DNA of 64,000 bases from Promethearchaeia archaeon. Lineage in GTDB: Archaea > Asgardarchaeota > Lokiarchaeia > Sigyniarchaeales > SOKP01. Shown here piece by piece: positions 3,038 to 42,147 of the stretch. The DNA lies in contig JAHQWL010000098.1 of the NCBI GenBank assembly GCA_029856155.1, positions 15,921 to 79,920 on the forward strand. The letters run 5' to 3'. How positions within the stretch are numbered: the stretch's first letter is position 1; every line of letters begins with the position of its first letter. The translations under genes were made by a program, and so were the position numbers. The notes under the pieces are model-generated. The model did no database searches. It saw only the letters and a list, made by a program, of their open reading frames with translations, and had not been told where the DNA came from.

Positions 3038-3104
3038 ATTATTCTCAAATAGCCTAATTTTTAATAATCCTATATAAATATAATAAGAGGGCTCGGTACG
3101 GGAA

Positions 3105-3134
3105 TTATTCCGAAAAGAATATGTTTCTTTCCGT
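3105..3134 (-). other. tRNA intron in T-loop (58/59), BHB-type, 30 nt
   Basis: GTTC/GAAT central helix, bulges AAA and AAT, 9-bp stem CGGAAAGAA/TTCTTTTCG, 5-nt loop. Confidence 0.9.
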
Positions 3135-3146
3135 TTGAACCCGTCT

Positions 3147-3176
3147 GTCCCCGGTTGTAAGGATATTTTCAAACCT
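3147..3176 (-). other. tRNA intron in variable region (~45/46), BHB-type, 30 nt
   Basis: CCCT/GGGG central helix, bulges AGA and ACA, GGTT/AACC intron stem. Confidence 0.8.
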
Positions 3177-3279
3177 CTAGGGATTCACAGTCCCCAATAC
3201 TAACCACTATACGAACCGAGCCATAGTTTTTTTTTAATTATAAATCTAAATGTTTACTTATAAAAAAATTTAATTATCC

Positions 3280-3852
3280 CTATTGTTTTTTACTTACTAT
3301 AGAAATTATATAGTTTAGACATTGATTAATTGCATCATCCAGTTTTCCAGAATTATCAATAATTAAATCTGCTTCTGGAAATAATTGATAACCTTTTGCT
3401 CGTTCTATTCTTTCTTCTAATAATTCTGATCTTTCCCTTCCTCGAACTTTTAAACGTTTTATGGTTGTTTCAAGAGGTACATATATGAAAACTATTTTAA
3501 GATTCTTATAAATTTCTCGTGTTTTTTTCAAAATTGACCGACTTACATTAATAATAACGGGGTGTCCATCTTTAAGAAAATCCTCAATTTTTATAGGAAT
3601 TCCATAGGATAAACCATAAATTTGCCATTTAAATGCAAACATTCCTTTTTTATCCATTTTTTTGAAATCTTCTGGAGATATCGAAAAATTTTTTTCAGTT
3701 TCGGAAGGTGGTCGAGTAATGAATCTTTTTGGTGCATAAATCTGTTTCAAATAAGGCGGATAAGCTTTAATAACACCTGAAATTATTGAATCCTTACCAG
3801 AACCAGAGTTTCCTACAATTAAAAATAATGTACCTAGGAAATTTTTTATCAT
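3280..3852 (-). CDS. phnN: ribose 1,5-bisphosphate phosphokinase (PhnN-like, guanylate kinase fold)
   Basis: GNSGSGKDS P-loop, R-x-ITRP, FAFKW-x-IYGLSYGIP, NVSR, RGRE. Confidence 0.8.
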   Translation of the reverse strand: MIKNFLGTLFLIVGNSGSGKDSIISGVIKAYPPYLKQIYAPKRFITRPPSETEKNFSISPEDFKKMDKKGMFAFKWQIYGLSYGIPIKIEDFLKDGHPVIINVSRSILKKTREIYKNLKIVFIYVPLETTIKRLKVRGRERSELLEERIERAKGYQLFPEADLIIDNSGKLDDAINQCLNYIISIVSKKQ

Positions 3853-3995
3853 TTACTTATTGGAAATAATAAAATAATAAAATTAAATCCATCTAAAAAA
3901 CAATTAAAATATAAAGATCATAAAGACTTATAAGATTGATTTATGTTAACAATCTTGAAAAAAATATAATAAGTTTAAAATAAAAAAATAAATAT

Positions 3996-4430
3996 TTGCC
4001 TTTAGAAATGGCCAAAAAAAGTAATAAATCAGAATCAAAGATTTCAGATATTCCCGAAAGTTATCAGAGATACGTAGACGAGATTCATATTATCTCCAGG
4101 AAAAAAAAGGGGGGTTGGGTTACAAATAAAGAAATTGCAGAAAGCCTTCATGTAGAACCGGCTTCCGTGTCGGGAATGTTAGAAAAATTAAAAAATAAGG
4201 GTTTAATCAAATGGGAACCAAGAAAGGCTATTAGATTAACTGAAGAGGGTAAAAAAATTGCTTCACAATTAGATGAAATTCATTCTCTCCTTTATCAATT
4301 TTTTGAAGAAGTTCTAAAAATAGAAAATCAAGATGTTATTGAAAATCTATCTTGTGAAATAGAACATCATATTACTCGAGGTGTTAAAGAATCATTAGAA
4401 CAATTTCTTTCAAAATACTTAGATGATTAA
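3996..4430 (+). CDS. DtxR/MntR-family metal-dependent transcriptional regulator
   Basis: EIAESLHVEPASVSGML HTH, LTEEG, CEIEHH. Confidence 0.85.
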   Translation: MPLEMAKKSNKSESKISDIPESYQRYVDEIHIISRKKKGGWVTNKEIAESLHVEPASVSGMLEKLKNKGLIKWEPRKAIRLTEEGKKIASQLDEIHSLLYQFFEEVLKIENQDVIENLSCEIEHHITRGVKESLEQFLSKYLDD

Positions 4431-4495
4431 TTTTAATTATAATCCTTAATTCAATGATGCAAGTACCTTAAAATATTTCCTCAAATGCATTTAAA

Positions 4496-5254
4496 ATGTC
4501 TGATAATTTAAAAGAAAAAGTAAGATTAGTAGATATAATATTTGAAAACTTTTCTAACTTTATTGAATTGAAAGATTTTAGATCTTTTTTACTATTTACT
4601 CTAACTAGTCAAGTTCCAACTAATATATTAGCTCAAATCGGGTTAGGAGGTAATAAAGAAGTTATAAACTTACCTTATAATCCTCTATTTAATATTTATT
4701 ATCAGAAAATTAATTTGATATCAGCAGGGTCTTTAATAATTTACGTAAAGAACGAGCCTATAACTGATAAATTTACATTAGAAAAAGATCATCAAATAAT
4801 AAAAAATTTTCTAACTGCTAATGAAATGAATCTAGCATTTCGAGGTAAAGAAAAATTTCTCCTCCCGAAGATTAGTGATTGCTCAGCTTATAATAACAAC
4901 GGAAAATCTAATTTAACAATTAAAGTTGACGATCTATTCCATTCATTAGAAAGTTTCTTAGCAGTAGCGGAACCAAATTTGCTCTTTGTTGTAGATGCTA
5001 CTAATGAATCAGAATCTGATATATTATTTACGTTTAACATGGTGCCAGAGATATCCGGTCATATCGATCAAAGGGTTCTGAAAATCGATGTTTTTTTTGA
5101 TAAGGACCATAAAACAAGAGATAAAACCTATTTAAAAAGAGAAGAAGATTATACAATAAAATTTTTAAATGATATCAAAGAAATAAGTCATGCAGATACA
5201 TATAAGTCAGCTTTTTCATTAATACTGCATGTAAAATCATTTTCAAAACCATAG
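4496..5254 (+). CDS. hypothetical protein
   Basis: 252-aa ORF; no motif recognised. Confidence 0.6.
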   Translation: MSDNLKEKVRLVDIIFENFSNFIELKDFRSFLLFTLTSQVPTNILAQIGLGGNKEVINLPYNPLFNIYYQKINLISAGSLIIYVKNEPITDKFTLEKDHQIIKNFLTANEMNLAFRGKEKFLLPKISDCSAYNNNGKSNLTIKVDDLFHSLESFLAVAEPNLLFVVDATNESESDILFTFNMVPEISGHIDQRVLKIDVFFDKDHKTRDKTYLKREEDYTIKFLNDIKEISHADTYKSAFSLILHVKSFSKP

Positions 5255-5502
5255 TATGACTCAATTCTTTTTATTTCTTTCATCTTGATTTAGAATGTTA
5301 GATATAAAAAATATATATTAGTGTATTAATACTATTATTGCATTTATTAGATAGTTGATAGAATTATATTCGTTAACAATTAAGCGATTAATACAATTAA
5401 AGGATTAATATAATCAATTTATATATCATCCGACAAAATATATTAAATATAATATTCAGTATTCAGTTTAATTTTAAATATCATGTAAAAAGGGTTGATA
5501 AA

Positions 5503-5706
5503 ATGAAGATTATTACAATAAATTTACCAGAAAAGTATTTGCAAGCAATTCAAATTTTAAATGACATGGGGGTTTATCCTTCCCGGAGTGAGGCGATAAG
5601 AATTGCTTTGAATGAATTTTTAGCGAAAGAATTAAAAATGTACAACGATCTCGATGATCATAGCTTTAAAATGCTTATAAGAAGCAAAACTAATAAAAAA
5701 AATTAA
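5503..5706 (+). CDS. ribbon-helix-helix (CopG-like) regulator
   Basis: MKIITINLPE...YPSRSEAIRIAL; GGGTTGA RBS-like element upstream. Confidence 0.85.
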   Translation: MKIITINLPEKYLQAIQILNDMGVYPSRSEAIRIALNEFLAKELKMYNDLDDHSFKMLIRSKTNKKN

Positions 5707-5861
5707 TCTTATCTCTTTTTTTCATTTTAGAATTTAAATCTCTAGGTTTTAATGTATTATCTTTAATTCACTTGATTTCCCAAAATGAATTAATTAAAAA
5801 ATTAAATAGAAAAAAGACATAATAAAATTGATCTATTAATATCTAAAATTGTTAACGAATC

Positions 5862-7130
5862 ATGAAATATTTAAAATCTACGCAAATACTGACTTTATTA
5901 ACTCTTTTCTCAAGTGCCTTGTTTAGCATAATAAGCCCCATGGCAGAAGAGATTTCTTTTACTTTGAATTTTAATGAAAATCAAGTACCATTCATAAATT
6001 CAATGTTTTTAATAGTTGGTGCTGTTAGTTCTCTTATATGGGCAATTTTAGGAGACAAAACTTCAAGGAAAGTATTACTTGTTATTTCAACCCTCGAATG
6101 GTCAGTTCTCACGCTACTTACAATTTTCTCTACTAATTTTCTTTCTTTATTAACATTTCAATTAATTACAGCAATAGGATTTGGGGCAGCATTACCGCTA
6201 ATCTTCTCCTTAACAATAGATTTAGTTGATCCAAAAAACCGCGGAAAAAAATTTGGGACTTTATCAGCTGTTTATGTTTTAGGTAATGGATTAGGACAAA
6301 TCCTTTCGGGATTCTTAATAGATTACTACACATGGCAAATGCCACTTTTAATTATTTCTATAAGTGGGTTTGTTTGTACGGGATTGTTATTTTTAGTTAA
6401 AGAGCCTTTAAGAGGAAGCACAGATGACCTCTATAAATCAATTGAAGAGGGTGCTCTTGGAATAGGATATAAAATTAAGATAAAAGACCTTAAGCAAATT
6501 TGGAAAATCAAATCAACTTTATGGATATTATTATTGAATTTTACCATGTTTATCTCTATAGGTGCCATATCATCATTTTTTATTTCAATGTTGAAAAATG
6601 ATTTTGATCTGACTTCAACTATAGCAACTTTAGTATTAATTTTAGTATTTGGTTCTCAAGTTCCCGCAGGGCCTCTCTTTGGTAAATGGGGAGATAAAAA
6701 ATATGAGACTGAAAAGAAAGGAAGGATGAAAGTTGTGCTAATATGTCTTTTATCTGGCTCAATTTTATATATTATAGCTTATTCACTATTTTTTATTTCG
6801 ACAGAATTACCTTTTATTATTATGTTTATTATCCTTACAATAGGAGGTGCCTTTTTATTCGGGGGTATTGACCCGTTAACGCAAGCTACTCTCGGAATCA
6901 ACCCTCCACAGATTAGATCAACAATTTATTCTATCAATTATTTGACCTACACTTTTGGACGTAGTATAAGTTTACTACTTCTTGGCCAATTCTTCATTAT
7001 CTTTAATAACTTTTATAGTCCAGGTTATTTGATTTTATCGATAATGGCTCTATTATGCTCGTTAACTCTTATCCCTATTTTAAAAACACTACCAAGAGAT
7101 ATTGAGAATATAAAATCGAATATAATTTAA
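5862..7130 (+). CDS. MFS transporter
   Basis: ~12 TM segments; LGDKTSRK motif A. Confidence 0.85.
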   Translation: MKYLKSTQILTLLTLFSSALFSIISPMAEEISFTLNFNENQVPFINSMFLIVGAVSSLIWAILGDKTSRKVLLVISTLEWSVLTLLTIFSTNFLSLLTFQLITAIGFGAALPLIFSLTIDLVDPKNRGKKFGTLSAVYVLGNGLGQILSGFLIDYYTWQMPLLIISISGFVCTGLLFLVKEPLRGSTDDLYKSIEEGALGIGYKIKIKDLKQIWKIKSTLWILLLNFTMFISIGAISSFFISMLKNDFDLTSTIATLVLILVFGSQVPAGPLFGKWGDKKYETEKKGRMKVVLICLLSGSILYIIAYSLFFISTELPFIIMFIILTIGGAFLFGGIDPLTQATLGINPPQIRSTIYSINYLTYTFGRSISLLLLGQFFIIFNNFYSPGYLILSIMALLCSLTLIPILKTLPRDIENIKSNII

Positions 7131-7158
7131 TTTACTTTTTTTTATATAAAGAATTATC

Positions 7159-7866
7159 ATGGAAATAAAGACTGACTTGTGTATAGGGTGTGGGCAATGT
7201 ATAATTATTTGTCCAGTTCAAGCTATAAGACTAATAGATAATAAAGCGATAATAGATCAGGATCTATGTGTTGAATGTGCAGTGTGCTATCGAGATGCGG
7301 GATGTCCTGTTAACGCAATTAGGTTGAAGCGATTGAAGTGGCCAAGAATAATTAGGAGTCCATTAAGTAATGTAATGGCTACCCATAAAATTACAGGGAT
7401 CCCCGGAAGGGGTACTGAAGAGATGAAGACTAATGATGTAACAAACCGTTTTAACACTAATGAAATCGGAGTTTCTATTGAATTAGGTAGACCCGGGGTG
7501 GGGGCTCACCTTAGAGATATTGAACTTTTCACTACAAAACTTTCTAGAATTGGTGTTGAATATGAAGAACAGAGTCCAGTAACAGCAATTATAATTGATA
7601 AAGAAGGTCATATCAAAGATGACATTAAAGATGAATTTGTTCTCTCAGCATTTATTGAATTAAAAATACCTAGAGAGAAAATTAGTCAGGTTTTACAAAT
7701 AATAAGAGATGTAGAAGAAGAAATTGATACAGTATTTACTGTTGGCATAATTTCAAGGGTAAAAGAAAATAACTTTGACCCTATCGTAAAGATATTATCA
7801 CAACAAGGATTTGAAATTAAACCTAATGCAAAAGTCAACATTGGATTAGGTAAAATATTGAAATAA
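7159..7866 (+). CDS. 2x[4Fe-4S] ferredoxin-domain protein with uncharacterised C-terminal domain
   Basis: CIGCGQC-x3-CP and CVECAVC-x5-CP; GRGTEEMKTNDVT; ELGRPG. Confidence 0.8.
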   Translation: MEIKTDLCIGCGQCIIICPVQAIRLIDNKAIIDQDLCVECAVCYRDAGCPVNAIRLKRLKWPRIIRSPLSNVMATHKITGIPGRGTEEMKTNDVTNRFNTNEIGVSIELGRPGVGAHLRDIELFTTKLSRIGVEYEEQSPVTAIIIDKEGHIKDDIKDEFVLSAFIELKIPREKISQVLQIIRDVEEEIDTVFTVGIISRVKENNFDPIVKILSQQGFEIKPNAKVNIGLGKILK

Positions 7867-7882
7867 GAAGGTAAGGGGAATA

Positions 7883-8476
7883 ATGACACATTCATTACAT
7901 AGAAAAGGCAAAAAAGCAGATTTACAAAAAGATTATGTTATTTTAGCTATGCTAGCTAAAGGAATCAATGATAAATTTCCTGATTCGCGCCATAGGTTAA
8001 TACAAATTGGTGAAATTCTAAATGAATATAATCCTATAAATATACTTCCTAAAGAACTTTGGAAGGTTTCTCCTGTTATCACAGCAACTTATACTGATAT
8101 AAAAACTGTGAAAAAACTAATAAAAACTCTTAAAAAAGAAGATTTAGGGATCTCTATCGTTGTGAGTGGATTACTTGAAGAAATTCAAAAGATGGCATCC
8201 AAAATTGATCTAAAATTGCATACCGTCCATTATTCTTTAGGTATCTTTGGGAAAAAAGAGTTACTGCCTTCAGATAAAATTTTAGAAATTACAACAATGT
8301 GCGGGCATCATTGTATCTCACCGCAATCTGTTTTGTATTATGTGAAATTGATTAGAGATAAAAAAATCTCGGTAGAAAAAGCAGCAGAAAAATTAAAAAA
8401 GCCTTGTGTTTGTGGAATTTTCAATCTCTCTAGAGCTGTGCAAATCCTTAATATAATAGCTAAAGATTCTTCTTAA
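7883..8476 (+). CDS. hypothetical Cys/His protein, likely partner of the upstream ferredoxin protein
   Basis: MTHSLHR, TMCGH and PCVCGIFN motifs; 16-nt spacing. Confidence 0.7.
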   Translation: MTHSLHRKGKKADLQKDYVILAMLAKGINDKFPDSRHRLIQIGEILNEYNPINILPKELWKVSPVITATYTDIKTVKKLIKTLKKEDLGISIVVSGLLEEIQKMASKIDLKLHTVHYSLGIFGKKELLPSDKILEITTMCGHHCISPQSVLYYVKLIRDKKISVEKAAEKLKKPCVCGIFNLSRAVQILNIIAKDSS

Positions 8477-8597
8477 TTTTTAAAATAAGTAATTCATATC
8501 TCAAGATATAAATAGTCAATTAATTTATTTTCAATTAGAAAAAAAGGAATTCAAGTATTATATTCATACAACGAAAATAGATATAAAGGTAAAATTA

Positions 8598-9236
8598 ATG
8601 AAAATAGCAATTATAGGAACAGGAAGATTAGGGAGTACTTTAGGGAAAATTTGGGCAGAAAAAGGACACATGATTATGTTTGGCTCTCAAGATCCCCAGA
8701 AAGCAATAAAGTTAGCTAATTCAATCGGATTCAATGCAACTGGAGGAACATATGAAGAAGCTTCAAAATTTAGTGAAATAATCATTCTAGCAGTTCCATG
8801 GTCAGGCGCAAAAGAATCAATCAAAAAAGCTGGAGATTTAAAAGATAAGATTATTGTAGATTCTACTACTACTGCTGCACCCCATTTAGGAGGACCTTTA
8901 ATAGTACCTACTCCATCTGCTGCAGAAAAAGTTGCAAAATGGGCAGTAGGCGCTAAAGTAATAAAAGCAGTTCATACTATTGGAGTAGATAGTTTAACTA
9001 AATTACAATTTGGTTCCCAACAAGCAAGTTTATTTGTTTGTGGTGATTATTTGGACGCAAAATCAAAATTGAAGCAATTAGGACTCGATCTCGGTTTTGA
9101 AGTTATTGATGTTGGACCACTTACAAATGCTAGACTTATCGAACCTTTAGCAATGCTTTGGATTGAATTAGCTTATAATCAAGGAATGGGGACAGATATT
9201 ACCTTTAAATTATTAAGACGTAGGAAGGCAAAATAA
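8598..9236 (+). CDS. F420-dependent NADP oxidoreductase family protein
   Basis: IAIIGTGRLG, ILAVPW, VCGD, DVGPL-x2-AR-x2-EP. Confidence 0.8.
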   Translation: MKIAIIGTGRLGSTLGKIWAEKGHMIMFGSQDPQKAIKLANSIGFNATGGTYEEASKFSEIIILAVPWSGAKESIKKAGDLKDKIIVDSTTTAAPHLGGPLIVPTPSAAEKVAKWAVGAKVIKAVHTIGVDSLTKLQFGSQQASLFVCGDYLDAKSKLKQLGLDLGFEVIDVGPLTNARLIEPLAMLWIELAYNQGMGTDITFKLLRRRKAK

Positions 9237-9395
9237 CTAATTTACTAATTTAATTTTTCTCTTTTCTATGTCATTTTTTTTTGCGGTAGATTTCAGTTAA
9301 GTTATAACTTTAACCTATAAAATAAAATTAATTTAAAAATTATAAATAATCATAGGTAGATTATATTTTAATAAATATTGATTTATGAATGAGAT

Positions 9396-10445
9396 ATGCG
9401 AGTTGCTAGATATTATAGTAATAATGATGTAAGGACTGACGATATACTAAAACCAATAATCGGTCCAGGAGAATTCATGGTTAAAGTAAAAAGATCGGGA
9501 ATCTGTGGATCTGATATACTAGAATATTATAGAAAAGCAAAAATGAAAAAGTTGGGAGTAAGCTCTTTGATTTTAGGCCATGAGATTGCTGGAGACATAG
9601 TAGAGAAAAGTGAGTCTATAAAACACCTTAGTGTAGGAGATCGTGTTTTTGTATCGCACCATGTGCCTTGTTTTGATTGTCATTATTGTACACAAGGACA
9701 CCATACAGCATGTAGTTTACTTCATAACACAAATTTTGATCCTGGTGGTTTCGCTGAATACGTCAGGGTACCTAAAATCAATATAGAAAAAAGAGGCGTA
9801 TATGTATTAGATAATAATGTCTCATATGAGGAAGCCGTTTTTATTGAGCCATTAGGATGTGTTTGTCGAGCACAACGTTTATCAAATGTTAAAAAAGGGA
9901 TGACTGTTTTGATTTTAGGATGTGGGGCATCGGGGTTATTACATGTAAAATTAGCAAAACTTAGAGGTGCTAAAAAGGTTATTGCAACTGATATTAATGA
10001 ATTCCGGTTACAAAAAGCACTGGAATTTGGAGCTGATGAAGTTTTTAACGCAGGTAGAGATCTACCAAATGAAATTAAAAAGATCAACAACTATATATTA
10101 GCTGATATCGTGATAGTTTGTACGGGAGCTTTATCAGCAGCAAACCAAGCATTGGAATGTGCTGCACCGGGAAGTAAAATCATATTTTTTGCGGTTCCAG
10201 AACCAGGGATAAACTTAGAAGTTCCGATAAACCGATACTGGAGAAATGAAATTACAATTCTGACTTCTTACGGTGCGGCTCCAGAAGACCTTGATGAAGC
10301 ATACAATTGGATACTCTCAAAGAGGATTAATGTTGTAGATTTAATTACTCATCGATTCCCCCTCAGCAAAGCTGGTGAGGCATTTAGAGTAGTATGCGAA
10401 GCTGGTGAATCAATTAAAGTAATTTTTGACATGGAACTAGATTAA
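9396..10445 (+). CDS. Zn-dependent alcohol/polyol dehydrogenase (MDR)
   Basis: GICGSD, GHE, C-x2-C-x2-C-x7-C, GCGASG. Confidence 0.9.
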   Translation: MRVARYYSNNDVRTDDILKPIIGPGEFMVKVKRSGICGSDILEYYRKAKMKKLGVSSLILGHEIAGDIVEKSESIKHLSVGDRVFVSHHVPCFDCHYCTQGHHTACSLLHNTNFDPGGFAEYVRVPKINIEKRGVYVLDNNVSYEEAVFIEPLGCVCRAQRLSNVKKGMTVLILGCGASGLLHVKLAKLRGAKKVIATDINEFRLQKALEFGADEVFNAGRDLPNEIKKINNYILADIVIVCTGALSAANQALECAAPGSKIIFFAVPEPGINLEVPINRYWRNEITILTSYGAAPEDLDEAYNWILSKRINVVDLITHRFPLSKAGEAFRVVCEAGESIKVIFDMELD

Positions 10446-10461
10446 TATCTTGAAAATTCGA

Positions 10462-11424
10462 TTATTTAAATTGATTGCTTCTCTGGATATGCTTTCGAAT
10501 TATCCAAGATTCCCATAAACTATATATCTCAAATAAAAAATCTTTTAATTTTTTTTTTGGGAAAAATATATCCATTTTAAGTAATTGACTAACAACCTCA
10601 TCTTCTGATAACTTAGAAGAGTTTGATATTTTTAACGCATTATCAACTTTTTTTTGATTCTCATTAATCTTAGTTCTCATATATTCAAAAGGGGTTGTAT
10701 CTGGATTTTTTACTATATAAGAGTGGCTTGAAGTTAAAAATTTCGCGTAATTTAAAAAAATTGACTCTGCTTGATTAATATCTTCAATATATTGCGAAAT
10801 TGAGGCTTCTTTAAATCCATACCAAGGACCAAAACCATCAATCTCAGGTTTTGGTTTATCAAATCCAAGGCAACTAATATGAAACACCTTTTCTTTAGGT
10901 ATTAAGAATCCAACGTGGGATCTCGAATGCCCGGGAAATGAGATTGTCTCTACTACTAAGTTCTCAAATTTTAGTGTTTCACCAGATTTGAAAGAATTTA
11001 TATAGTTACAGTTATGAAACCCATTTATTTTTCCAAATTTTTCAATAGTAGAATACTCTAAAGTTTCGTTAAAACCAAAACCTCTATAAAAATTACGAAG
11101 ATCAAGCAAATAATTCGCTTCCGGGGTTGGAGCATGGATATTAACTCCAAGTTGCTCCCAAGCATATACATGAGAAGTATGGTCAATGTGTGCATGGGTA
11201 CACACATAGTTTGAGACGGGACCATATATATCATTCAAATTTTTAATATATTTAGGTTCGATATTTAAATCAAGTGCTATCGTTTTTTTATTTCTAGCTT
11301 CTTTAGGTAAAATTAGAAGCCCATCACAACAAGAAAATAAAAAGGGGACTTTTTTTTGATGGATTAGTAAAATGTCTTCTGTTACTTCCCAGATTTCAAG
11401 ATTATCTATTATTGGAAGAGACAT
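10462..11424 (-). CDS. metallo-beta-lactamase fold protein
   Basis: THAHIDH, PGHS. Confidence 0.8.
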   Translation of the reverse strand: MSLPIIDNLEIWEVTEDILLIHQKKVPFLFSCCDGLLILPKEARNKKTIALDLNIEPKYIKNLNDIYGPVSNYVCTHAHIDHTSHVYAWEQLGVNIHAPTPEANYLLDLRNFYRGFGFNETLEYSTIEKFGKINGFHNCNYINSFKSGETLKFENLVVETISFPGHSRSHVGFLIPKEKVFHISCLGFDKPKPEIDGFGPWYGFKEASISQYIEDINQAESIFLNYAKFLTSSHSYIVKNPDTTPFEYMRTKINENQKKVDNALKISNSSKLSEDEVVSQLLKMDIFFPKKKLKDFLFEIYSLWESWIIRKHIQRSNQFK

Positions 11425-11540
11425 GGATGTATTATTTCTTGATATTTATCCAAATTGTAATATAAAATAAATAAAACTTTAATAAGTTGACTTTCATAAA
11501 ATTTAAGTCAATTTAAAAGAATAATGAACATATTATCATA

Positions 11541-12677: not shown

Positions 12678-12710
12678 GATTATTATAAAAAAAAATATTT
12701 AATGATAGAA

Positions 12711-27330: not shown

Positions 27331-28755
27331 TTATAAATTTTTAAGTGCAATTTTTTCTAATTCCCTATTTAAATGTTCATCAATAGGAACTATGGAGGCT
27401 TTATCTAATAATTTAGAAGCTTGGTCTTTAGCCCTTCTTCTAACAGATTTAGAACCGTTCTGTTTCCAAGCATCACGCGTCATTCTATCTATTATTGGGC
27501 TTGGAAAGTATAATTCTTTTTTAAAATATTTCAGGGTTGATGGATGGGATAAAAGTTCTTCTTTATCTGCATAATCTTTTAGAATTTCTGAAGCAAAGGG
27601 AGATCCATGATCTTCAATACCTTGAATTAATCTTTTTACCATTCCTACTATTTCATTATCAATAATTAATTTCTCAATACTTTGGGTTGATTCAAAATCA
27701 AGCATTCCAGGACCAGAGATCATGTTAATCCCTGCTAATCCTGCTAATAGAGCTCCCATGCCAGCTTCAAAACCTGCTTGACCATCGGGTACTTTCGAAT
27801 CACTTAAGCCCATATAAGCGTGTGTGGGTAATTTTAAGTATTTACCCATTTCAACATCTCCAAGATTTATCATCATCGTTTCTATTGCACCCATTGGCGT
27901 TGTTGCTGTCTTAACATCTAAGACAGCGGGAGAGCCCCCCCAAATTAACGGAGCCTCTCGTTTGGTTAACTGAACTATTACAACCCCTGCAAGACATTCC
28001 GCACAGTGTTGAGTAATCGATCCGATCAAGGTGATTGGGGCACTAGCTCCAGCTAATGGCATTGAAACGAATTCAGAGGGGATCATACTTTTCGCTGCAT
28101 CAATTAATGATTGTGTAGTTAGATCTGACCATTTAAGAGGGGGACTTGGACATGCATCAAATATTGCTAGTGGTTTTCTCGCTAAATCGTCTTCCGATGA
28201 TCTACACGCCAGTAGAATTTCTCGCATGATCGAGAAACTTTCTTTTCGGAATGTTCCAGTAATGACAGGTTTATAACAATTAGATAACGCGAGATATAAT
28301 CTGTGCCAATCTTGAGCTTCTTTTGGTACATCGTTATAAATTAATGCTGTACTTTGAGCATCGATATATTTCAATTGCTCAACTACTTTTGAAAATCTAA
28401 TGAAATCTTTTGATATAGCTTCTCTAATATCCCCGGTTTCCTCATCAAGTATGAAAATTGCAGCAGATCCGGGATCAAAATTAACATTATCTTCCTTCAA
28501 GGTAATATGTTCATTACCCTCTCGATCATAAAGAGTAATTTCACTGGGTACAGTTTCTAAACATGTATTAATTAAATCTGGTGGGAGAAAATATCGTGAA
28601 CCCTCATGATTTATACCATTTTGATTAAATAATTCAATTGCTTCCTGATTCTCTATAAATACTCCTTGGGTTTCGAGAATCATTTTAGCTTCTTCCAAAA
28701 TCATTTGTTTATGTTCTTCATCTAATATTTTTATCTTTGGTCTTAAAATTGGCAT
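27331..28755 (-). CDS. MttB-superfamily methyltransferase, non-pyrrolysine
   Basis: P-x-AGASAP-x-TL-x-G, MG-L-SDSKVPD-x-QAG-x-E (Leu at the Pyl-equivalent site), GPGML. Confidence 0.88.
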   Translation of the reverse strand: MPILRPKIKILDEEHKQMILEEAKMILETQGVFIENQEAIELFNQNGINHEGSRYFLPPDLINTCLETVPSEITLYDREGNEHITLKEDNVNFDPGSAAIFILDEETGDIREAISKDFIRFSKVVEQLKYIDAQSTALIYNDVPKEAQDWHRLYLALSNCYKPVITGTFRKESFSIMREILLACRSSEDDLARKPLAIFDACPSPPLKWSDLTTQSLIDAAKSMIPSEFVSMPLAGASAPITLIGSITQHCAECLAGVVIVQLTKREAPLIWGGSPAVLDVKTATTPMGAIETMMINLGDVEMGKYLKLPTHAYMGLSDSKVPDGQAGFEAGMGALLAGLAGINMISGPGMLDFESTQSIEKLIIDNEIVGMVKRLIQGIEDHGSPFASEILKDYADKEELLSHPSTLKYFKKELYFPSPIIDRMTRDAWKQNGSKSVRRRAKDQASKLLDKASIVPIDEHLNRELEKIALKNL

Positions 28756-33545: not shown

Positions 33546-34285
33546 TGGTGCTAATTGTCATTAAAAACAAACGCAAATTTGTACAGATTGGATTTACAAA
33601 TTGTTATTTATTAAAATGTAATGGAGGGTATCTCCTTATCGATGTCGGATATCCTGAAGATTATGAAAAATTCGTTCAAAAATTAAAAAAGAAATTCAAT
33701 ATTGATATATCAGAAATAAAATATCTGCTTCTCACACATCATCATGATGACCATGCCGGATTTGCTACCGAGCTTTTAAAAAATACAAAAGCTAAATTAA
33801 TAGTTCATGAAAAGACTCTCAAAAGACTAAAAATGGGAGCCTCCGAAGAAGAATCAAGACCTATTAACAGAAGAATTAAAGCAATTTTAGGAATTTTTAG
33901 CCGTTTTCATGAATTCAAATTTCCCCCTGTTATTCCAACTGATAAAGATATTATTATAAGAGGCTCTGAAGATAATACTGATATTTTAAAAAATCTTGGT
34001 ATTGAGGGAATAATTATTCCCACCCCCGGACATACAAAAGACGGAATTTCAGTCATTTTATCTGATGGTTCTGTTTTTCCTGGGGATAATACCATGAATG
34101 CGTGGTATTTCAACATTTTCGGAATAAAAAAACGCCCAATTTACGTTCAAGATTTTATATTAATTCTTAATAGTTGGGAAAAATACATCGAGCTTGGTGG
34201 AAAAAAAGTGTATCCTGCCCATGGTAAAGCTTTTGATATCAAAAAATTACAGAAAAACCTTAAAACATTTAGTAAAAATTACTAA
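33542..34285 (+). CDS. MBL-fold hydrolase
   Basis: THHHDDH, TPGHT, PGD, PAHG. Confidence 0.85.
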   Translation: MMVLIVIKNKRKFVQIGFTNCYLLKCNGGYLLIDVGYPEDYEKFVQKLKKKFNIDISEIKYLLLTHHHDDHAGFATELLKNTKAKLIVHEKTLKRLKMGASEEESRPINRRIKAILGIFSRFHEFKFPPVIPTDKDIIIRGSEDNTDILKNLGIEGIIIPTPGHTKDGISVILSDGSVFPGDNTMNAWYFNIFGIKKRPIYVQDFILILNSWEKYIELGGKKVYPAHGKAFDIKKLQKNLKTFSKNY

Positions 34286-34327
34286 AAATAGTTGTTTCTG
34301 TATAAATTAATAAGTCAAAACATAAGA

Positions 34328-34465
34328 TTGAGTAAATTAGATAATATATTACATATTATTGCAAGTCACCATAATTTAAAAGAATGGGGTTCTCCAATAC
34401 AACCAAATTCAATTGAAGCTTGGATAATACACTATGCTGAGAATATCTCTGCAAAAATTGGATAG
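34328..34465 (+). pseudogene. C-terminal remnant of a YhaM-like HD-domain nuclease
   Basis: LHIIASHHNLKEWGSPIQP...EAWIIHYAENISAK resembles H-x-I-x-SHH...GSP..P...EA..IH..D...AK. Confidence 0.6.
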
Positions 34466-34643
34466 ATTTTTAGAGGTATAAAAAGGAATTAATTTTTAAT
34501 TCAAAAAGGATCTTATGATTCAATAAAAACTAATTGTACAATCATTTAAATTTGATAAAATAAGAAATAAGAAAAATTATATACTTGAATAATACTTTAA
34601 GTATATAAGAAATAAAATAAATTTAAACAAAATAAAAATTATT

Positions 34644-34985
34644 ATGAAAACGAGAAATTTGCAAAAATGGGAGAAGTTTGAAAGCGAGATATGCAAATTT
34701 TTGGGTATGGATCATATTGACGGGTCTTGAAAGCCCGATTGTAAAAATCCAAATGATCCAACTGAAATAGCGGAAGCAAAAAGTTATAGTAGAAATTTCA
34801 ATGCTTATGACTTAAAGAGAGAATTAAAAAACGCAAAAAATCATGGTGGAAAGAAGATACGGATTATAGTAAAACATGAATGCACTGAAAATACCAAAAA
34901 ATTAGCTGAGCAATTACCAGAAGTAATTCTTAGGTGTAATTGCAATGACCTTTTTAAAATAAGAAGACAAACACTTCATAATTAA
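34644..34985 (+). pseudogene. small PD-(D/E)xK nuclease-like ORF (113 codons) with in-frame TGA at 34728
   Basis: WEKFESEICKFL...HIDGS*KPD...AEAK; frame is otherwise open. Confidence 0.6.
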
Positions 34986-35096
34986 AGAGAAGAGGGATTG
35001 TAACTTGATTTTATCATTTATTTTTAAAACTTGTCTCATTTATTATTGCAAAGTTCTCATTTATTATTGAAAGTTACACATTAATCTTTACTAATC

Positions 35097-36017
35097 ATGA
35101 ATTTTATCGAAGATTTAATTCAATTAATAAAAGAAAAAAAAAGTGTTGTTAGTATGGGACTTGATCCCAGATTGGATAATGAGGGTGAAATTCCCCAATA
35201 CTTAATTGAAGAAATAAAGGATCCAAATAAGATCATAATTGAATTTAATAAAATTTTGATTGAAAATACTTATGATTTAATACCTGTCATTAAACCCCAA
35301 ATAGCGTTCTATGAAAGATATGAAGCCTTAGACGCTCTAAAAGAAACTATAAAATTTGCACATAATAATGATTTATTAGTAATTTTAGATGCGAAGCGAA
35401 ATGATATTGGAAGTACATCTGAAGCGTATGCTTACTCCTTATTTAAAAATCTCAATGCCGATGCCTGTACTATTAATGCATATTTGGGTTTTGATGGAGT
35501 TAAACCTTTTTTAGAATATAAAGAAAAAGGTGTCTTCATCCTTGTAAAAACATCAAACCCCAGCAGTGCAGAATTTCAAGATTTATTTAGTATAAGATTA
35601 GATGAGATTCCTAATGATATTATGGAGTATAAAGTAGAGAATAGGATTTTAAAGAGGAATTATCTTCAGCTTGCTGAGCTTATACATGATTGGAGTAAGA
35701 ATTTAATACAATTTTCTAATTTCACTAATTTAGGTGTTGTTGTTGGGGCAACTTATCCTCGGGAATTAAAAAAAGTGCGAGAAATTGTAAAAAATTCTTT
35801 CATATTAATACCTGGCTACGGTGCTCAAGGTGCTCAAGCGAAGGACATTAAAAATGGTTTTTATAAGAGTGGATTAGGCGGAATTGTAAACTCTTCAAGA
35901 AGCATAATTTATGCATATCATAAAAATAAAAATTATTCTCAAGAGAACTTTGGAAAAGCCGCTAGAGATGAGATAATTGAAATGAGTAAGAAAATCAACA
36001 GAGAAATAATGAATTAA
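35097..36017 (+). CDS. pyrF: orotidine-5'-phosphate decarboxylase
   Basis: GLDP, KPQIAFYE, DAKRNDIGST, VVGAT, PGYGAQG, NSSR. Confidence 0.95.
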   Translation: MNFIEDLIQLIKEKKSVVSMGLDPRLDNEGEIPQYLIEEIKDPNKIIIEFNKILIENTYDLIPVIKPQIAFYERYEALDALKETIKFAHNNDLLVILDAKRNDIGSTSEAYAYSLFKNLNADACTINAYLGFDGVKPFLEYKEKGVFILVKTSNPSSAEFQDLFSIRLDEIPNDIMEYKVENRILKRNYLQLAELIHDWSKNLIQFSNFTNLGVVVGATYPRELKKVREIVKNSFILIPGYGAQGAQAKDIKNGFYKSGLGGIVNSSRSIIYAYHKNKNYSQENFGKAARDEIIEMSKKINREIMN

Positions 36018-36021
36018 TTCG

Positions 36022-36426
36022 TTAAAAACTTCCCCCTGAAGAAGAAAGAAAGGATATAGCTGTTATAAGTGGCACCACAACAAAAAACACCACAACAACA
36101 GATCTTTTAATACCAATTCTGTGAATTAAATTTATAATATTTACGTCTATAAAGAAAGAAAAGAAAACCACTAATATTATTATTCCCGGATCATCCCCAA
36201 GTTTCCCAATCATCCCATATAATATTAAAGGAGAACAAATGAAAATAATGACTCCCAATTGAATAACCCAGCTAGCCGCAACCCATTTCAGATTTTTTTT
36301 TACCTCAGCTTTAGTAATAGCTAAACCAATTTTTAAAAATAACATATCAAAAAGTATCAACATTAGAGCACTAATAATTATGCCCATTTGTCCTCCACTA
36401 AATTGAAAAATCATTAAACTCACCAA
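36022..36426 (-). CDS. small membrane protein
   Basis: 4 hydrophobic segments. Confidence 0.6.
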   Translation of the reverse strand: MVSLMIFQFSGGQMGIIISALMLILFDMLFLKIGLAITKAEVKKNLKWVAASWVIQLGVIIFICSPLILYGMIGKLGDDPGIIILVVFFSFFIDVNIINLIHRIGIKRSVVVVFFVVVPLITAISFLSSSGGSF

Positions 36427-36598
36427 TTAAACATAGTAATTTTGATTTTAAAATATCACTTTATTTATAATAATTTTTAACTATAAGAAACATTTTATTA
36501 AAACAATTTAAATTTATTTAATTAGTTTAGATTTACATTGATATTGTATTAACTGATTTGGAGGAATTATAAAAAAGATAATAAATAGGTAATATGCA

Positions 36599-38578
36599 AT
36601 GGTAGAAACTAAAGATGAAACGGTTCAATATGACGAAGAAACACCAAGGATTGCTGTGTTTATATGCCAATGAGGTATAAATATTGCTGAAATTATAGAT
36701 ACTAAAGCATTAGTAGAATTTTCAAAAATTCTTCCCGGGGTTGTCGAATCTTTAGATTATATTAGTCTTTGTACTGAACCTGGTGCTGAGTTCATTAAAG
36801 AAAAAATGATTGAAAGTAAAGCAAATAGATTAGTTATAGTATCTTGTACTCCTAAAACTCACGAACCCGTTTTTAAAAGTGTGTTAGAATCAATGGGAAT
36901 AGATCCATCTTACCTTGAATTCGCCAATATACGAGAACATTCTAGTTTTGTACATAAAAAGGATAAACCAGGTGCCCAAAGGGTTGCGGAAGATATAATC
37001 CGATCTGCTGTAGCAAGAGCTTCTGTTTTAGAGAAAATTTTGATTAAAGAAGTTGATATAACAAAAACTGCTCTAATTATTGGTGGAGGAGTAGCAGGAT
37101 TATCAGCAGGCATTGATCTCGCTGAAGAAGGATTTGAGGTACATTTAGTAGAAACAAACCCTACAATAGGTGGTAAAATGGCTAAATTGGATCGTACTTT
37201 TCCTACAGATGATTGTAGTATATGAATATTGGGACCAGTAATGTTACAAGCAGCAAGAACACCTGGGCTCAATATGTACACGTATAGCGAATTAGAAGAA
37301 GTTTCTGGTTTTGTTGGGAATTTTATTGTAAAAATAAGAAAAAAAGCACGGTATATAACAAATGATTGTAATGGATGTGGCGCATGTTATGAAGTGTGCC
37401 CCGCATATGGATATAATGAGTTCAACGAGGGAATGGATTCAAGAAAAGCTATATATGGAGCATTTACTCAGGCAGTTCCTTCTTTAGCTCAGATTGATAT
37501 GGACCGATGTATCAAATGTGAATTATGTAAAGGTGTTTGTGAGCTAGATGCAATTGATTTCGATCAAAAAGATATAATTATTGAAGTAAAAGTGGGTACA
37601 ATTGTTGTTGCAACTGGTTGGGATGAATTTGAACCACCAACTGGATATTTAGGTTACAATAAATATCCCAACGTAATTACTCAATTAAAACTTGAAAGAA
37701 TGTTAGCTCCAAATGGACCCACAATAGGACATATAGTAAGACCTTCGGATGGAAAAGAACCAAAGAGAATATTATTCATTCAATGTGTTGGGTCAAGAGA
37801 TTTAAACATGAATACATATTGTAGTTCTGGTGTATGTTGTATGATTTCTATAAAGAACAGTAAATTAATTAAACAACATTATCCAGAGGCAGATATTTCG
37901 GTTGCTTATATGGATATGCGAGCTGCTGGAAAAGATTATGAAGAATACTTCACACTTTCAAGAAAAGAAGGTATTAAATATATAAGAACAAATATCAGTA
38001 GAATAAAGGAAGATCCAGATACACATAATTTAAAAATAATTATGCAAAATACCTTAGGATCAGGTGGATTAAGAGAATTTGAATTTGATTTAGTAATACT
38101 CTCTGCTGCGATGGTTCCTCCTACTGGTATTAAAAAAATCGAAAAGTTACTTAAATTAGAAACTAGTCAAGATGGGTTCTTTAAAGAATTTCATGCTAGA
38201 TTAAATCCTATTGATTCAAAAATTCCCGGAATAGTTCTTGCAGGAGTTAGTCAAGGTCCAAAATCTATAGTTGAATCTATAGCACATGGTAGAGCAGCTG
38301 CATCTTCAGTTGCTAGACTTATGGGTAAAGATAAATATCGGATTTTACTGATTCGTGGATCTGTTGATAAAGAACGATGTGCAAAATGTGGATTATGCGA
38401 GTTAAATTGCCCATACAATGCTATAACTCTAACGGAGGAGGGAGCTGAAGTGAATGAGATCTTATGTAGGGGTTGTGGGAGTTGTTTAGCTAACTGTCCT
38501 TCAGAAGCTATAACCCTTAGATATTATAGAGAACCACAATATGAAAAACAAATAGATGCAATATTAGAAGAAATATAA
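36599..38578 (+). CDS. hdrA: heterodisulfide reductase subunit A, selenoprotein (UGA at codons 25 and 209), ~659 aa
   Basis: RIAVFICQ-TGA-GINI (36671) and FPTDDCSI-TGA-ILGP (37223), both at conserved Cys sites; IGGGVAG FAD motif, ferredoxin motifs, QCVGSRD. Confidence 0.93.
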
Positions 38579-38591
38579 AGGGGTGAATTGA

Positions 38592-39062
38592 ATGACTCAA
38601 GCATCAAATAATGATATAAAAATTTTAGCATTCCTTTGTTGGAAATGAGGGTATGGTGCTGGAGATATGGCTGGAACGATTCGAGCACAATATCCCGCTA
38701 CATTACGACCGATTAGGATCAATTGCTCAGGAAGAGTAACACCATCTTTGATGATGCGTGCAATAGGTAAAGGTGCTGACGGGGTTGTTATTGGAGCTTG
38801 ATACAAGGGAGAATGTGATTATGAAACTGGAAATAAAGTTGCTGAAAGGAATGTCATTTATACACAAGAAATTTTGAAAACAATTGGACTCTCCCCAGAA
38901 CGAATTCAAATGTTTCATTGTAGTGCCGCTGAGGGTACGCGATTTCAAAATGAGGTAACTCGTATTTCAGAAACAATCAAAAATCTAGGCAGCAATCCTT
39001 TAAAAGATTCTAATTCTTCTAAGAAAGAGGAGAAGGAATCAAAAAAGAAAAAAACCGAATAG
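38592..39062 (+). CDS. mvhD: MvhD/VhuD hydrogenase Fe-S subunit, selenoprotein (UGA at codons 19 and 70), 156 aa
   Basis: ILAFLCWK-TGA-GYGAGD (38646), IRINCSGRV, GADGVVIGA-TGA-YKGEC (38799), GLSPERI; GGGTGA RBS upstream. Confidence 0.93.
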
Positions 39063-39119
39063 AATGACCCCTTCAAGTAAATTTTAGTTGAATTGGGACT
39101 AACCTTGTGAAGGTTTCGG
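39055..39119 (+). promoter_or_regulatory. candidate eukaryote-type SECIS element
   Basis: ATGA (39064) - 11 nt - AAA (39079) ... GA (39097); TTCAA/TTGAA stem; CCGAA/TTCGG closing helix; starts right after the vhuD stop. Confidence 0.7.
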
Positions 39120-39227
39120 AATTCAATATTTTTAAATTTATATATAAATTTTATATCTTTCTTTTAAGTTTTTATTTTAAAAACTATTTTCTAATTTACT
39201 AATCATTTTTATTAAAGTGAGTTTAAG

Positions 39228-40526
39228 ATGGGAAAAGATCCTGAAAAGCAACTAAAGAAAGCGGACAAACTTTATAAAGCAATGCAATACAAAAGAGCAG
39301 CAAAATTATTTAATACTGTTGGAAATAATTTCTTAGACTTAGGAGATTATAAAACTGCTAAAGAGTGTTTTTTTAACGCCGCTAAAAGTGCTATTAATGA
39401 AGATAAATATCTACGTGGTTTAGAATTTCTAAGGAATGCGGCAAATGCAGCTCTTCTTAATAAAAATTTCTCTGAAGCTTATCAATTCTATACTAATGCA
39501 CTTAACTATGTTCCTAGTTTACACGGTACTTCAGATCGCGATTATCAATTCATATTATTTTCAAGTTTATCTTATTTATGTTTGTTTTTAGAAGGAAAAC
39601 AAGAGGAAGGTCTAAATTTAGTGAAAAAGACAAAAACCTTTGTAAATGATATTTATTTTAAAGAAAATTATTTAATCAAGTTAATTAAGGATTTAACAGT
39701 TGCTACAAAAGATATTAAAGAAAATTATTTAAAAAAAATTGAAAATGATTTTGAGAATTTTAAATTTCATGAAGGTGAAAGTTATCTAGCAAAACTTGCA
39801 TTAGTATTAGCAAAAACTATTGTCACTTTAAAATCTAAATCGACATTTGATAAGAATGTATACACAACTAATGATATTATAAATTTAACTATAAATGTTG
39901 ATACAAAACCTCTTTTAGATATTTCAAATAGTCCTTTTTATAACTATAAAGTAAAGGAATTAAAAATAACTAAAATTGGGATAAAACAGTCAGATAATTT
40001 CACAACTTATAAAAAACCTGAATTCCCAATTACTATAATAGCAGGTCAGAATTATCAAATAGATCTGTTATTTAAACCTCATTTTCAAATGGAAAAACCT
40101 TTTATTGGTCCTATTGTGTTAACTTCTGAATTAGATAGTAATTTAAAATTCTATTATGAAATTCCTGAAACATTTTATCCAAATCTGATATCTCCTCCTC
40201 CCACATTGGATATATCAATAAAAAATTTGAGACCTCCTCTCATTGGTCAATCTTTTCCCTTAGAGATATTTGTAGAAAATAAAAGTGAGGGAGATGCCTT
40301 AGATCTTAATATAGAAATAGAATTTCCAGAAAATCTTAAAGTAATGAGAGGTACATTGAAAAAACAAATATATTCATTAAGATCAAATGAAAATATGAAA
40401 TGGGAAATTAATCTCAAACCACTTGAAGCTGGAGATTATTCTATTAAAATAAAAACAACATTTAAAGATCCAGATCAAAATCAAATTGGAGAAATAAAAG
40501 ATTTCCCGCTTTTGATAAAATTATAA
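39228..40526 (+). CDS. TPR/SNAP-like helical repeat protein with C-terminal Ig-like domains
   Basis: N-terminal A-x3-Y/F helical repeats; C-terminal beta pattern IFVENKSEGDA...WEINLKPLEAGDYSI. Confidence 0.6.
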   Translation: MGKDPEKQLKKADKLYKAMQYKRAAKLFNTVGNNFLDLGDYKTAKECFFNAAKSAINEDKYLRGLEFLRNAANAALLNKNFSEAYQFYTNALNYVPSLHGTSDRDYQFILFSSLSYLCLFLEGKQEEGLNLVKKTKTFVNDIYFKENYLIKLIKDLTVATKDIKENYLKKIENDFENFKFHEGESYLAKLALVLAKTIVTLKSKSTFDKNVYTTNDIINLTINVDTKPLLDISNSPFYNYKVKELKITKIGIKQSDNFTTYKKPEFPITIIAGQNYQIDLLFKPHFQMEKPFIGPIVLTSELDSNLKFYYEIPETFYPNLISPPPTLDISIKNLRPPLIGQSFPLEIFVENKSEGDALDLNIEIEFPENLKVMRGTLKKQIYSLRSNENMKWEINLKPLEAGDYSIKIKTTFKDPDQNQIGEIKDFPLLIKL

Positions 40527-40578
40527 ATTCAATTTGTTTTATATATCTCTATCTTAAAATAATAAGTGAGAAAATGAA

Positions 40579-42147
40579 ATGAAATTAAAAATTAAAGAAA
40601 TTAATTTTGAAACTGGCAATACAAAAGACATTGTCTTAAATATTAAGGATGCTCGAGAATTAGGACAAAAAGCGGGAGAACGCGTTATTGTAAAAAATAT
40701 TGTATCAAAATCTATTGAAGAAAAATACTGGGTAGCAATAATTCAAATAGATTTCTTAGGTACCATTGTTGAACCTGGAGAGATTGGAGTATTTCTTAAT
40801 CTTTTAAGAGAAAAGAAAGATTTAAAAAATGAAATGATTGTATCTGTAAAACCAGCAGATCCACCAAACTCATTTAGATTCATACAAAAAAAAATAAAAG
40901 GACAAAAACTTTCCAGCGAAGAAATTAATAATATTATCTCTGATGCGGTTTCTGGATCTCTCTCACGGATAGATTTAGCAGCATTCATAACAGGAGTAGC
41001 TATTAATAGCATGGATAACGAAGAAATGACTGCTTTAACTCTAGCGGAAACTAGGAGTGGAGAGATCTTTTATTTCGGAATGGATGTCTACGATAAACAT
41101 AGCACAAAAACCTATATTTCATAGGTTTTGTTAAAAGGCGGCGTCCCAGGGAATAAAGTATCTCTAATTATCGTTCCGATTGTTGCTGCTGCTGGATTAA
41201 CTATTCCAAAATCTTCAACAAGAGCCATAACATCCCCATCAGGTACAGCAGATTCAATGGAAGTCTTAGCTCCCATTGCTTTCAATCCAGAAGAGTTAAA
41301 AAGTATTGTATCTGAAGAAAATGCATGTATAATTTGGGGTGGAGCTCTTGAAACAGCTCCAGCAGATAACATTTTAATAGAAATTGAACGTCCTTTACAT
41401 ATGGATCCCATAGGTCTTATGATACCTTCTATTCTAACAAAAAAGCTTTCATTAGGAGTTAAAAAGCTTGTTCTTGATATACCGGTGGGCGAAGGTACAA
41501 AATTTCCTACAATCGATAAAGGAAAACAGTTTGCTTATTTATTTAAAGAAATTGCTGCAAATGTTGGAATTGAAGCAGAATGCGCCCTCACATTAGCTCA
41601 TCAACCTATAGGTCACGCTGTAGGTCCTGCTTTAGAAGCTAAAGAAGCGCTTACATTATTACGTGAATATTCTGCGGGACCTAACTCTTTAATAGAGAAG
41701 TCTACTGATTTAGCGGGGATTCTACTTGAAATGGGCGGAAATGCTCTAAAAGGTATGGGACAAAGTTTAGCGAAAGAAATTTTACGTTCTGGTAAAGCTT
41801 ATGAAAAAATGAAAAAAATTATCGAAGCACAGGGGGGAAATCCAGAAATAAAACCCGAAGATATTGAGTTAGGACCACATATTAAAGAATTTTTTGCTTC
41901 TAAAGATGGATATATAGTTGATGTAAATAATTCAATAATAAATCGAATAGCAAAAACTGCAGGATGCCCTAACTCGAAGACTTCAGGTGTAGAAATTATA
42001 AAAAAACAAGGTGCAAAAATAAAAGAGGGAGAATTAGTATTTAGAGTTTATTCACATAATCAATCTAAATTAAGAAAGGCGGAAAAAATTTATAATACAA
42101 CAGGAGGTCCAATTCGTCTTGGAGGAATGTTGATTGAGAGAGTATAA
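40579..42147 (+). CDS. deoA: AMP phosphorylase (thymidine phosphorylase family), split by a predicted 30-nt intron; ~512 aa spliced
   Basis: ORFs 40579-41124 and 41128-42147 share a frame; after splicing DKHSTGGVPGNK; KSSTRAITSPSGTAD, SILTKK, DIPVGEG, GPALEA. Confidence 0.9.
41106..41135 (+). other. candidate BHB/BHL-type intron in an mRNA
   Basis: TAGC/GTTA central helix, bulges ACA and AAA, stem AAAACCTAT/ATAGGTTTT with in-frame TAG; removal gives AGC-ACA-GGC. Confidence 0.8.

Follow-up and report, generated by a model that had tools for sequence, protein, structure and literature searches.

Predicted bulge-helix-bulge introns of 30 nucleotides interrupt tRNA-His and AMP phosphorylase genes in an Asgard archaeal genus

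The 64,000-nucleotide (nt) stretch of Promethearchaeia archaeon DNA analyzed here (the window; contig JAHQWL010000098.1) contains three inserts of exactly 30 nt, two within the tRNA-His(GUG) gene and one within the coding sequence of AMP phosphorylase. We conclude that all three are very probably archaeal bulge-helix-bulge (BHB) introns, and that the AMP phosphorylase mRNA is cut and rejoined by the tRNA-splicing enzymes. This reading draws on direct observation of structure, exact junctions, covariation, polymorphism and the presence of the enzymes; the excision itself we infer from the sequences. The genome, denoted G000, comprises 4.1 Mb in 104 contigs (30% GC, 97% complete). The window corresponds to G000:C98:15921-79920, and sites elsewhere in the genome are given in the same notation.

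Each of the three introns is laid out as 1 + 23 + 4 + 2 = 30 nt, with a central helix (H) of 4 bp and bulges of 3 nt. A preliminary description of the window had proposed this common layout, and both a register scan and the intronless joints of related genomes agree with it. The exon-side helix h contributes 2, 1 and 0 bp next to the bulge in the tRNA-His introns at positions 58/59 and 45/46 and in the mRNA intron, respectively. These are relaxed HBh'-type motifs, which need an EndA splicing endonuclease of broad specificity.

In the transcript, four exon bases would pair with four intron bases to form the central helix, flanked by the two 3-nt bulges and the intron hairpin. The splicing endonuclease, made up of a catalytic EndA subunit and a non-catalytic paralog, would cut after the second base of each bulge, and RtcB would ligate the exons. 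For tRNA-His the predicted outcome is a mature cloverleaf. For AMP phosphorylase it would be a protein of ~512 amino acids (aa) in which the phosphate-loop motif DKHSTGGVPGNK is restored; on RNA left unspliced, translation would stop after 181 aa.

The predicted AMP phosphorylase intron

The insert in the AMP phosphorylase gene consists of A, AAAACCTAT/ATTTC/ATAGGTTTT, GTTA and AA, the second element forming a 9-bp stem with a 5-nt loop. The two open reading frames (40579-41124 and 41128-42147) lie in one reading frame, and the first ends at an in-frame TAG (41122-41124) inside the insert. The break falls within the DKHST|GGVPGNK loop, between DKHS-T and GGVPGNK. When the exons were searched separately, the TIGR03327 profile coordinates were contiguous across the break, and the exons, each scored on its own, yielded 106.6 (exon 1) and 448.1 bits (exon 2; cut-off 535). 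Intronless orthologs at 90% identity carry the name AMP phosphorylase in public sets. Public annotation lists exon 2 of the present gene alone, as a 339-aa protein, and about half of the genus's closest public AMP phosphorylase entries are 338-341 aa long and start at a TTG within the intron, many of them under the name 'hypothetical protein'. These short entries are a systematic mis-annotation of intron-bearing alleles.

In 61 related genomes, the length of the downstream frame falls into one of two classes, ~340 or ~512-519 aa. At the DNA level, the genus shows presence or absence of exactly 30 nt at a single position, and the intronless joints are those predicted. Pooling of all fetched loci gave 18 distinct intron-bearing alleles versus 33 distinct intronless flanks (52 intronless occurrences). 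The exons of the two classes of allele are equally similar, the junction excepted. On the gene tree, six changes of intron state are needed, at least four of which are forced by strongly supported branches.

In an alignment of 16 intron-bearing sequences, 98.1% of the cells of the 4-bp central helix and the 9-bp inner stem were paired, compared with 31-50% for slid partners. Six pairs had changed on both sides in a compensatory manner, a level matched by none of 500 shuffles, although the alleles are akin to one another and such counts overstate the number of independent events. At pair 11-44, where U-A is replaced by C-G, a synonymous His change in the exon (CAT to CAC) is matched by the intron base. 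The inner helix h' comprises 9 bp, and no exon-side pairs adjoin the bulge (h = 0 bp); a distal 7-bp exon-exon helix, set off by an internal loop, retains all seven pairs in 15 of the 18 intron-bearing alleles versus 5 of the 33 intronless ones.

All 16 aligned alleles carry an in-frame stop within the insert, which is TAG, TAA or TGA depending on the allele. The proposal of the preliminary description that production of the enzyme depends on splicing, with a 181-aa product from unspliced RNA, thus stands. Its further suggestion of a regulatory switch has lost ground: a conserved role of this kind is unlikely because some two thirds of the congeners lack the intron, and the gene tree implies at least 4-6 losses or gains.

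The tRNA-His gene and its two predicted introns

ARAGORN reported no tRNA in the raw 64-kb window, and tRNA-His was not among the 24 matches above cut-off obtained with the Rfam tRNA model over the whole genome. Upon deletion of both 30-nt segments from the minus strand (3222..3089), ARAGORN reported a 73-nt tRNA-His(GTG) with a genomically encoded G-1 opposite C73.

The BHB register scan assigned to the 45/46 intron the central helix CCCU/GGGG with bulges AG|A and AC|A (H=4, h'=4, h=1), and to the 58/59 intron the central helix GUUC/GAAU with bulges AA|A and AA|U (H=4, h'=9, h=2). The 58/59 intron, located in the T-loop, has an inner stem of 9 bp capped by a 5-nt loop, with compensatory stem changes among orthologs. 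The inner stem of the 45/46 intron is imperfect, being composed of 4 bp (GGUU/AACC), a bulge and 1 bp. The hairpin that had been described for all three inserts is therefore well formed in the T-loop and mRNA introns, which share the 9-bp stem and 5-nt loop, and weak in the 23-nt segment of the 45/46 intron.

We compared the tRNA-His gene with its orthologs in 25 congeners. Orthologs in two genomes (L124/L125) lack exactly the 30 nt of the 45/46 intron and read CCCTAG|AGACGGG, the predicted joint; those in four genomes (L129-L132) lack exactly the 30 nt of the 58/59 intron and read GGGTTCAA|TTCCCG, again as predicted. Across the genus, inserts occur at six positions of tRNA-His in varying combinations, five of them being 30 nt and one 26 nt long; the D-loop and the anticodon-loop region each account for two, and the remaining ones are those at 45/46 and 58/59 (L116/L117, from G027 and G005; L129-L134, L131, L141). 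In the present genome, tRNA-His has no intron at 37/38.

The splicing machinery

Two genes encoding an EndA domain (PF01974), on C13 (198 aa) and C52 (202 aa), and one RtcB gene are present in the genome. Among solved relatives, the A. pernix catalytic alpha subunit comes closest to the C13 protein (E 1e-34). In the C13 protein the catalytic His is retained, and a KPR segment is aligned with Lys44/Arg46 of the Crenarchaea-specific loop (CSL), which confers cleavage of non-canonical and relaxed motifs (PMC3241643). The C52 paralog is without His at the catalytic position, and its nearest match is the homotetramer subunit of M. jannaschii. Asgard archaea have been assigned the (alpha-beta)2 type of EndA with CSL (PMC5829648), and the present pair appears (alpha-beta)2-like, a putative broad-specificity heterotetramer. 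It resembles the A. pernix (alpha-beta)2 enzyme (PDB 3P1Z/3AJV; PMC3241643, PMC5829648) in that the C13 protein keeps the Lys and Arg of the CSL and the second paralog is without the catalytic His; it differs in that the C52 protein is most like the M. jannaschii subunit just named, not a beta subunit of the crenarchaeal kind.

A proposed intron size class in tRNAs and mRNAs

A census of tRNA genes was made by taking GC-rich intergenic islands, removing up to two BHB candidates per gene and running ARAGORN on the result. This census, which is noisy and incomplete and whose entries are uncurated, yielded about 33 loci, which together contain about 25 introns. A length of exactly 30 nt was found in six of these, about 18 of the 25 fall within 28-34 nt, and a few measure 13-22 nt or 43 nt. 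The length distribution, which the preliminary description had singled out as a check, has its mode at 30 nt in this genome, so that the length is no coincidence confined to the three window introns. The 1 + 23 + 4 + 2 layout is the standard intron form of the genus and implies no special tie among the three. Many further GC-rich intergenic islands (G000:C34:4154-7107, C75:44-289 and others) could harbor tRNAs that have at least three introns or relaxed motifs.

Two further putative 30-nt mRNA introns were found, in an AIR-synthase-like gene and in a Roadblock/LC7 gene. A screen for long open frames on both sides of a strong motif had two top candidates, both 30 nt in length: the AMP phosphorylase intron and the AIR-synthase-like one (G000:C44:81452-81481). 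The latter consists of U, a 9-bp stem with a 5-nt loop, GCGU and AU; it lies in phase 1, and its motif is canonical, the exon-exon helix measuring 11 bp. Once spliced, the gene reads GFHV-T-RAALRDLYVKGAKP. Exon 2 matches AIRS/AIRS_C and ThiL/HypE/SelD-type models, while exon 1 alone has no Pfam or NCBIfam match, so that the identity of the gene rests on exon 2 and on the orthologs. The intron occurs in 7 of 30 alleles, with 97.6% pairing over 24 pairs. In one allele it is 29 nt long and would shift the frame if translated; preservation of frame by intron length, as had been supposed, is therefore not a rule.

In the Roadblock/LC7 gene, Pfam positions 2-35 and 42-90 flank the insert (G000:C72:106002-106031). 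Among the matches listed, those of most congeners (G027, G015, G023 and others) are 30 nt shorter than the query range. The DNA is continuous across the site in G023 and G033, and the match of G005 stops short of it. Absence of the intron where congener matches span the site makes it a candidate for a very recent gain. The candidates at C89:12242, C52:117468, C94:16223, C26:151070 and C72:71329 were dropped as noise or gene boundaries.

With these two additional mRNA introns, the EndA pair bearing the CSL Lys/Arg and RtcB, the earlier idea that one splicing machinery serves tRNA and mRNA has gained support.

Weighing the evidence

Several points weigh against interpretation of the inserts as spliced introns, besides the relatedness of the alleles that inflates the covariation counts. 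The AMP phosphorylase motif is relaxed, its outer exon helix not being adjacent to the bulge. A near-identity search of public protein collections revealed no joint-spanning protein above 93% identity, and hence none at 97% or more. Finally, a genome-wide BHB descriptor combined with repair of open reading frames, run with the true geometry and with 12 wrong geometries at two stringencies, gave no excess for the true geometry (242 versus about 240; at the strictest level, 3 versus 1-3). At 30% GC, the genome abounds in BHB-like matches, and the descriptor alone is without discriminating power in such AT-rich sequence. The genome-wide search advocated in the preliminary description thus failed to exceed its controls and cannot stand alone, an outcome that by that description's own terms counts in part against its reading; two other coding sequences do carry putative 30-nt introns. 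Because the descriptor does not rise above the controls, the case for each intron is built on covariation, exact joints and homology, and true introns can be told from gene boundaries only by homology or comparison.

Among the alternatives, the one that fares best holds that the three 30-nt introns are copies of a single mobile family whose members moved out of tRNA genes and into mRNAs. The common length and layout would fit this, as would the apparently recent gain in the Roadblock/LC7 gene, and copying between tRNAs does seem to occur. The tRNA-Ser(GGA) gene (G000:C44:142194-142328, minus strand) contains a 30-nt T-loop intron at the same position as that of tRNA-His; the two are identical at 21 of 30 nt and share the end GGAAUAA, and their differences fall in the stem, a likeness that suggests intron copying between tRNA genes. 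However, the best ungapped matches between mRNA and tRNA introns (13-18 of 30 nt) lie inside the shuffled range, with a lowest P of 0.046 (uncorrected for seven tests) and remaining values of 0.2-0.9. The three mRNA introns are unrelated to one another in sequence, and a preprint on Asgard tRNAs found no general arrival route (10.64898/2026.10.13.758758). We therefore regard this alternative as unlikely. The spread of tRNA introns into mRNA envisaged earlier likewise finds no similarity beyond shuffled controls, and the spread that is visible, that of the AIR-synthase-like intron, points to homologous recombination.

Alternatively, the insert could be inactivating, leaving AMP phosphorylase as a pseudogene or as two polypeptides of 181 and 339 aa, and the many database entries of 338-341 aa that start inside the insert would be explained thereby. 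Yet both exons are open and conserved in the 18 distinct alleles (80-96% nucleotide identity), with no other lesions, and the break falls within the DKHSTGG loop. Moreover, the helices of the insert are kept by compensatory changes that include exon bases, for which an inert insertion offers no reason. We consider this very improbable.

Least probable of all, and only slightly less so than inactivation, is translational recoding, in which the stop would be read through (for instance TAG as pyrrolysine) or the ribosome would hop over the hairpin, since a length divisible by three, a stable hairpin 3' of the take-off region and a PYLIS_3 Rfam match in the window are set against a stop that varies among TAG, TAA and TGA, an mttB-like frame without in-frame TAG under that match, an AIR-synthase-like sister intron in phase 1 that is 29 nt long in one genome, and a geometry that the tRNA introns share, in which exon and insert are joined by a central helix. 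The variable stop rules out pyrrolysine read-through. The PYLIS_3 match (mttB pyrrolysine insertion element; 27708-27807) lies within an uninterrupted mttB-like open reading frame of 474 aa (27331-28755, minus strand); this is probably a non-pyrrolysine MttB-family gene, with the match reflecting coding similarity.

Intron spread and loss

The AIR-synthase-like alleles provide a view of how one mRNA intron has spread. Between the gene start and a point ~45 nt beyond the intron, alleles with the intron resemble one another far more closely than they resemble intronless ones; within ~150 nt of the junction, identity is 0.85-0.94 among intron-bearing alleles versus 0.67-0.75 to intronless alleles. 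Further downstream, intron-bearing alleles are no more alike. Accordingly, the 3' exon of G000 is closest to those of its near relatives G005 and G010, both intronless, whereas its 5' exon is ~70% identical to theirs and 88-98% identical to distant intron-bearing alleles. In G026, the shared tract extends just from about -150 to +45 around the intron.

Trees of the two exons are in conflict. In the 5'-exon tree, all seven intron-bearing alleles form a clade together with one intronless allele (support 100/99), and two state changes suffice. In the 3'-exon tree, the intron-bearing alleles are scattered and six changes are required, which equals the shuffled mean; the clade of the 5'-exon tree is rejected by the approximately unbiased (AU) test (p = 6e-46). 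From this conflict and the identity tracts it follows that the intron is evidently linked to a stretch of exon that species have exchanged through homologous recombination. It has been lost precisely once. That the AIR-synthase-like intron travels with a recombinant 5'-exon haplotype is the finding that is new here.

Taken together, the comparisons indicate that the mRNA introns are optional, polymorphic and precisely lost elements, which in at least one gene seem to move between species with neighbouring exon sequence. A broader proposition, which we put forward tentatively and as having somewhat less than an even chance, is that BHB mini-introns of ~30 nt constitute one fixed size class in the tRNA and protein genes of this Asgard genus. 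Such introns would be semi-mobile, spreading between species by homologous recombination with the exon sequence needed for their own motif, and being lost precisely. If true, a simple intron economy based on protein enzymes would exist in the mRNAs of the closest archaeal relatives of eukaryotes.

Features of the window

The coordinates of the two interrupted genes and their predicted RNA elements are listed in Table 1. Directly 3' of AMP phosphorylase, a 496-aa leucine-rich-repeat protein is encoded at 42177-43667 (plus strand). A segment at 63770-63960, GC-rich within an AT-rich genome, carries a ~30-nt unit (GATTTCATC.G.ACTGACTAGAAACT) in two direct copies, together with a palindrome that is long and perfect (CTAGCCCGGTCAGCCCGACGCGTCGGGCTGACCGGGCTAG). 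It matches no Rfam family; a structured RNA and the terminus of a mobile element are both conceivable.

Table 1. Positions of the predicted introns, exons and helix strands in the window
Feature	Position	Strand	Details
tRNA-His(GUG) gene	3090..3222	minus	G-1 = 3222, discriminator C73 = 3090; contains two introns
Predicted 30-nt BHB intron, tRNA-His position 45/46 (variable loop)	3176..3147	minus	A + 23 nt + GGGG + AC
Predicted 30-nt BHB intron, tRNA-His position 58/59 (T-loop)	3134..3105	minus	A + 9-bp stem/5-nt loop + GAAU + AA
AMP phosphorylase exon 1	40579..41105	plus	TIGR03327 positions 1-165; PF02885; ends after second base of Thr codon (phase 2)
5' strand GGAUGUC of distal exon-exon helix	41082..41088	plus	partner GGCGUCC at 41140-41146; 7 bp
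Exon strand UAGC of 4-bp central helix	41100..41103	plus	partner GUUA at 41130-41133; four pairs retained in 16/16 alleles
Predicted 30-nt BHB intron of AMP phosphorylase mRNA	41106..41135	plus	presence/absence in genus and covariation
AMP phosphorylase exon 2, stop codon included	41136..42147	plus	TIGR03327 positions 167-500

Significance and comparison with known systems

Endonuclease-type splicing of mRNA would, on this evidence, extend beyond cbf5 to several ordinary metabolic and regulatory genes of one Asgard archaeon, with an intron form identical to that of the tRNA introns. This bears on how often mRNA interruption arose before the spliceosome and on how such introns are gained; for one gene, the AIR-synthase-like case suggests a concrete route, in which a segment of an intron-bearing allele is moved by recombination. 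Gene callers list such genes as truncated or hypothetical, and tRNA finders miss such tRNAs; Asgard metabolic reconstructions and tRNA inventories are therefore biased.

In eukaryotes, the HAC1 and XBP1 mRNAs are cut by IRE1 and ligated by Trl1 or RtcB; the XBP1 intron is 26 nt long, and the reaction is a regulated stress switch. The likeness to the present introns lies in a tiny mRNA intron, a protein endonuclease acting at stem-loops in place of the spliceosome, the use of a tRNA ligase and a protein output that depends on splicing. The nuclease and the recognition motif are different, and the stress switch of HAC1/XBP1 contrasts with the AMP phosphorylase case, where regulation is not indicated.

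The tRNA introns of Asgard archaea (10.64898/2026.10.13.758758) and Thermoproteales resemble those described here in occupying multiple non-canonical positions, here 45/46 and 58/59 of tRNA-His with 37/38 left free, in being missed by standard tools, and in having been gained repeatedly at positions that vary between species. The Asgard preprint (10.64898/2026.10.13.758758), which covers tRNA genes only, reports median lengths of 22-23 nt, whereas the mode in the present genus is 30 nt and the same form occurs also in mRNAs.

The closest precedent is the cbf5 pre-mRNA of Crenarchaeota, the only mRNA for which BHB splicing is established in the literature that was searched (Watanabe 2002; Yokobori 2009, PMC2738675). 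Its intron, cut between the second and third bulge bases by a heteromeric EndA, is likewise a small BHB intron that lies beside a catalytic residue in the coding sequence, uses relaxed motifs and shows a history of gain and loss across related species (PMC2738675). Splicing of cbf5 was confirmed by cDNA, whereas here it is deduced from sequence. The present introns differ further in belonging to the Asgard archaea (Promethearchaeota), in residing in different genes, with several protein genes interrupted per genome, and in forming a uniform size class of ~30 nt common to the tRNA introns; one of them, in addition, evidently moves with a recombinant exon segment.

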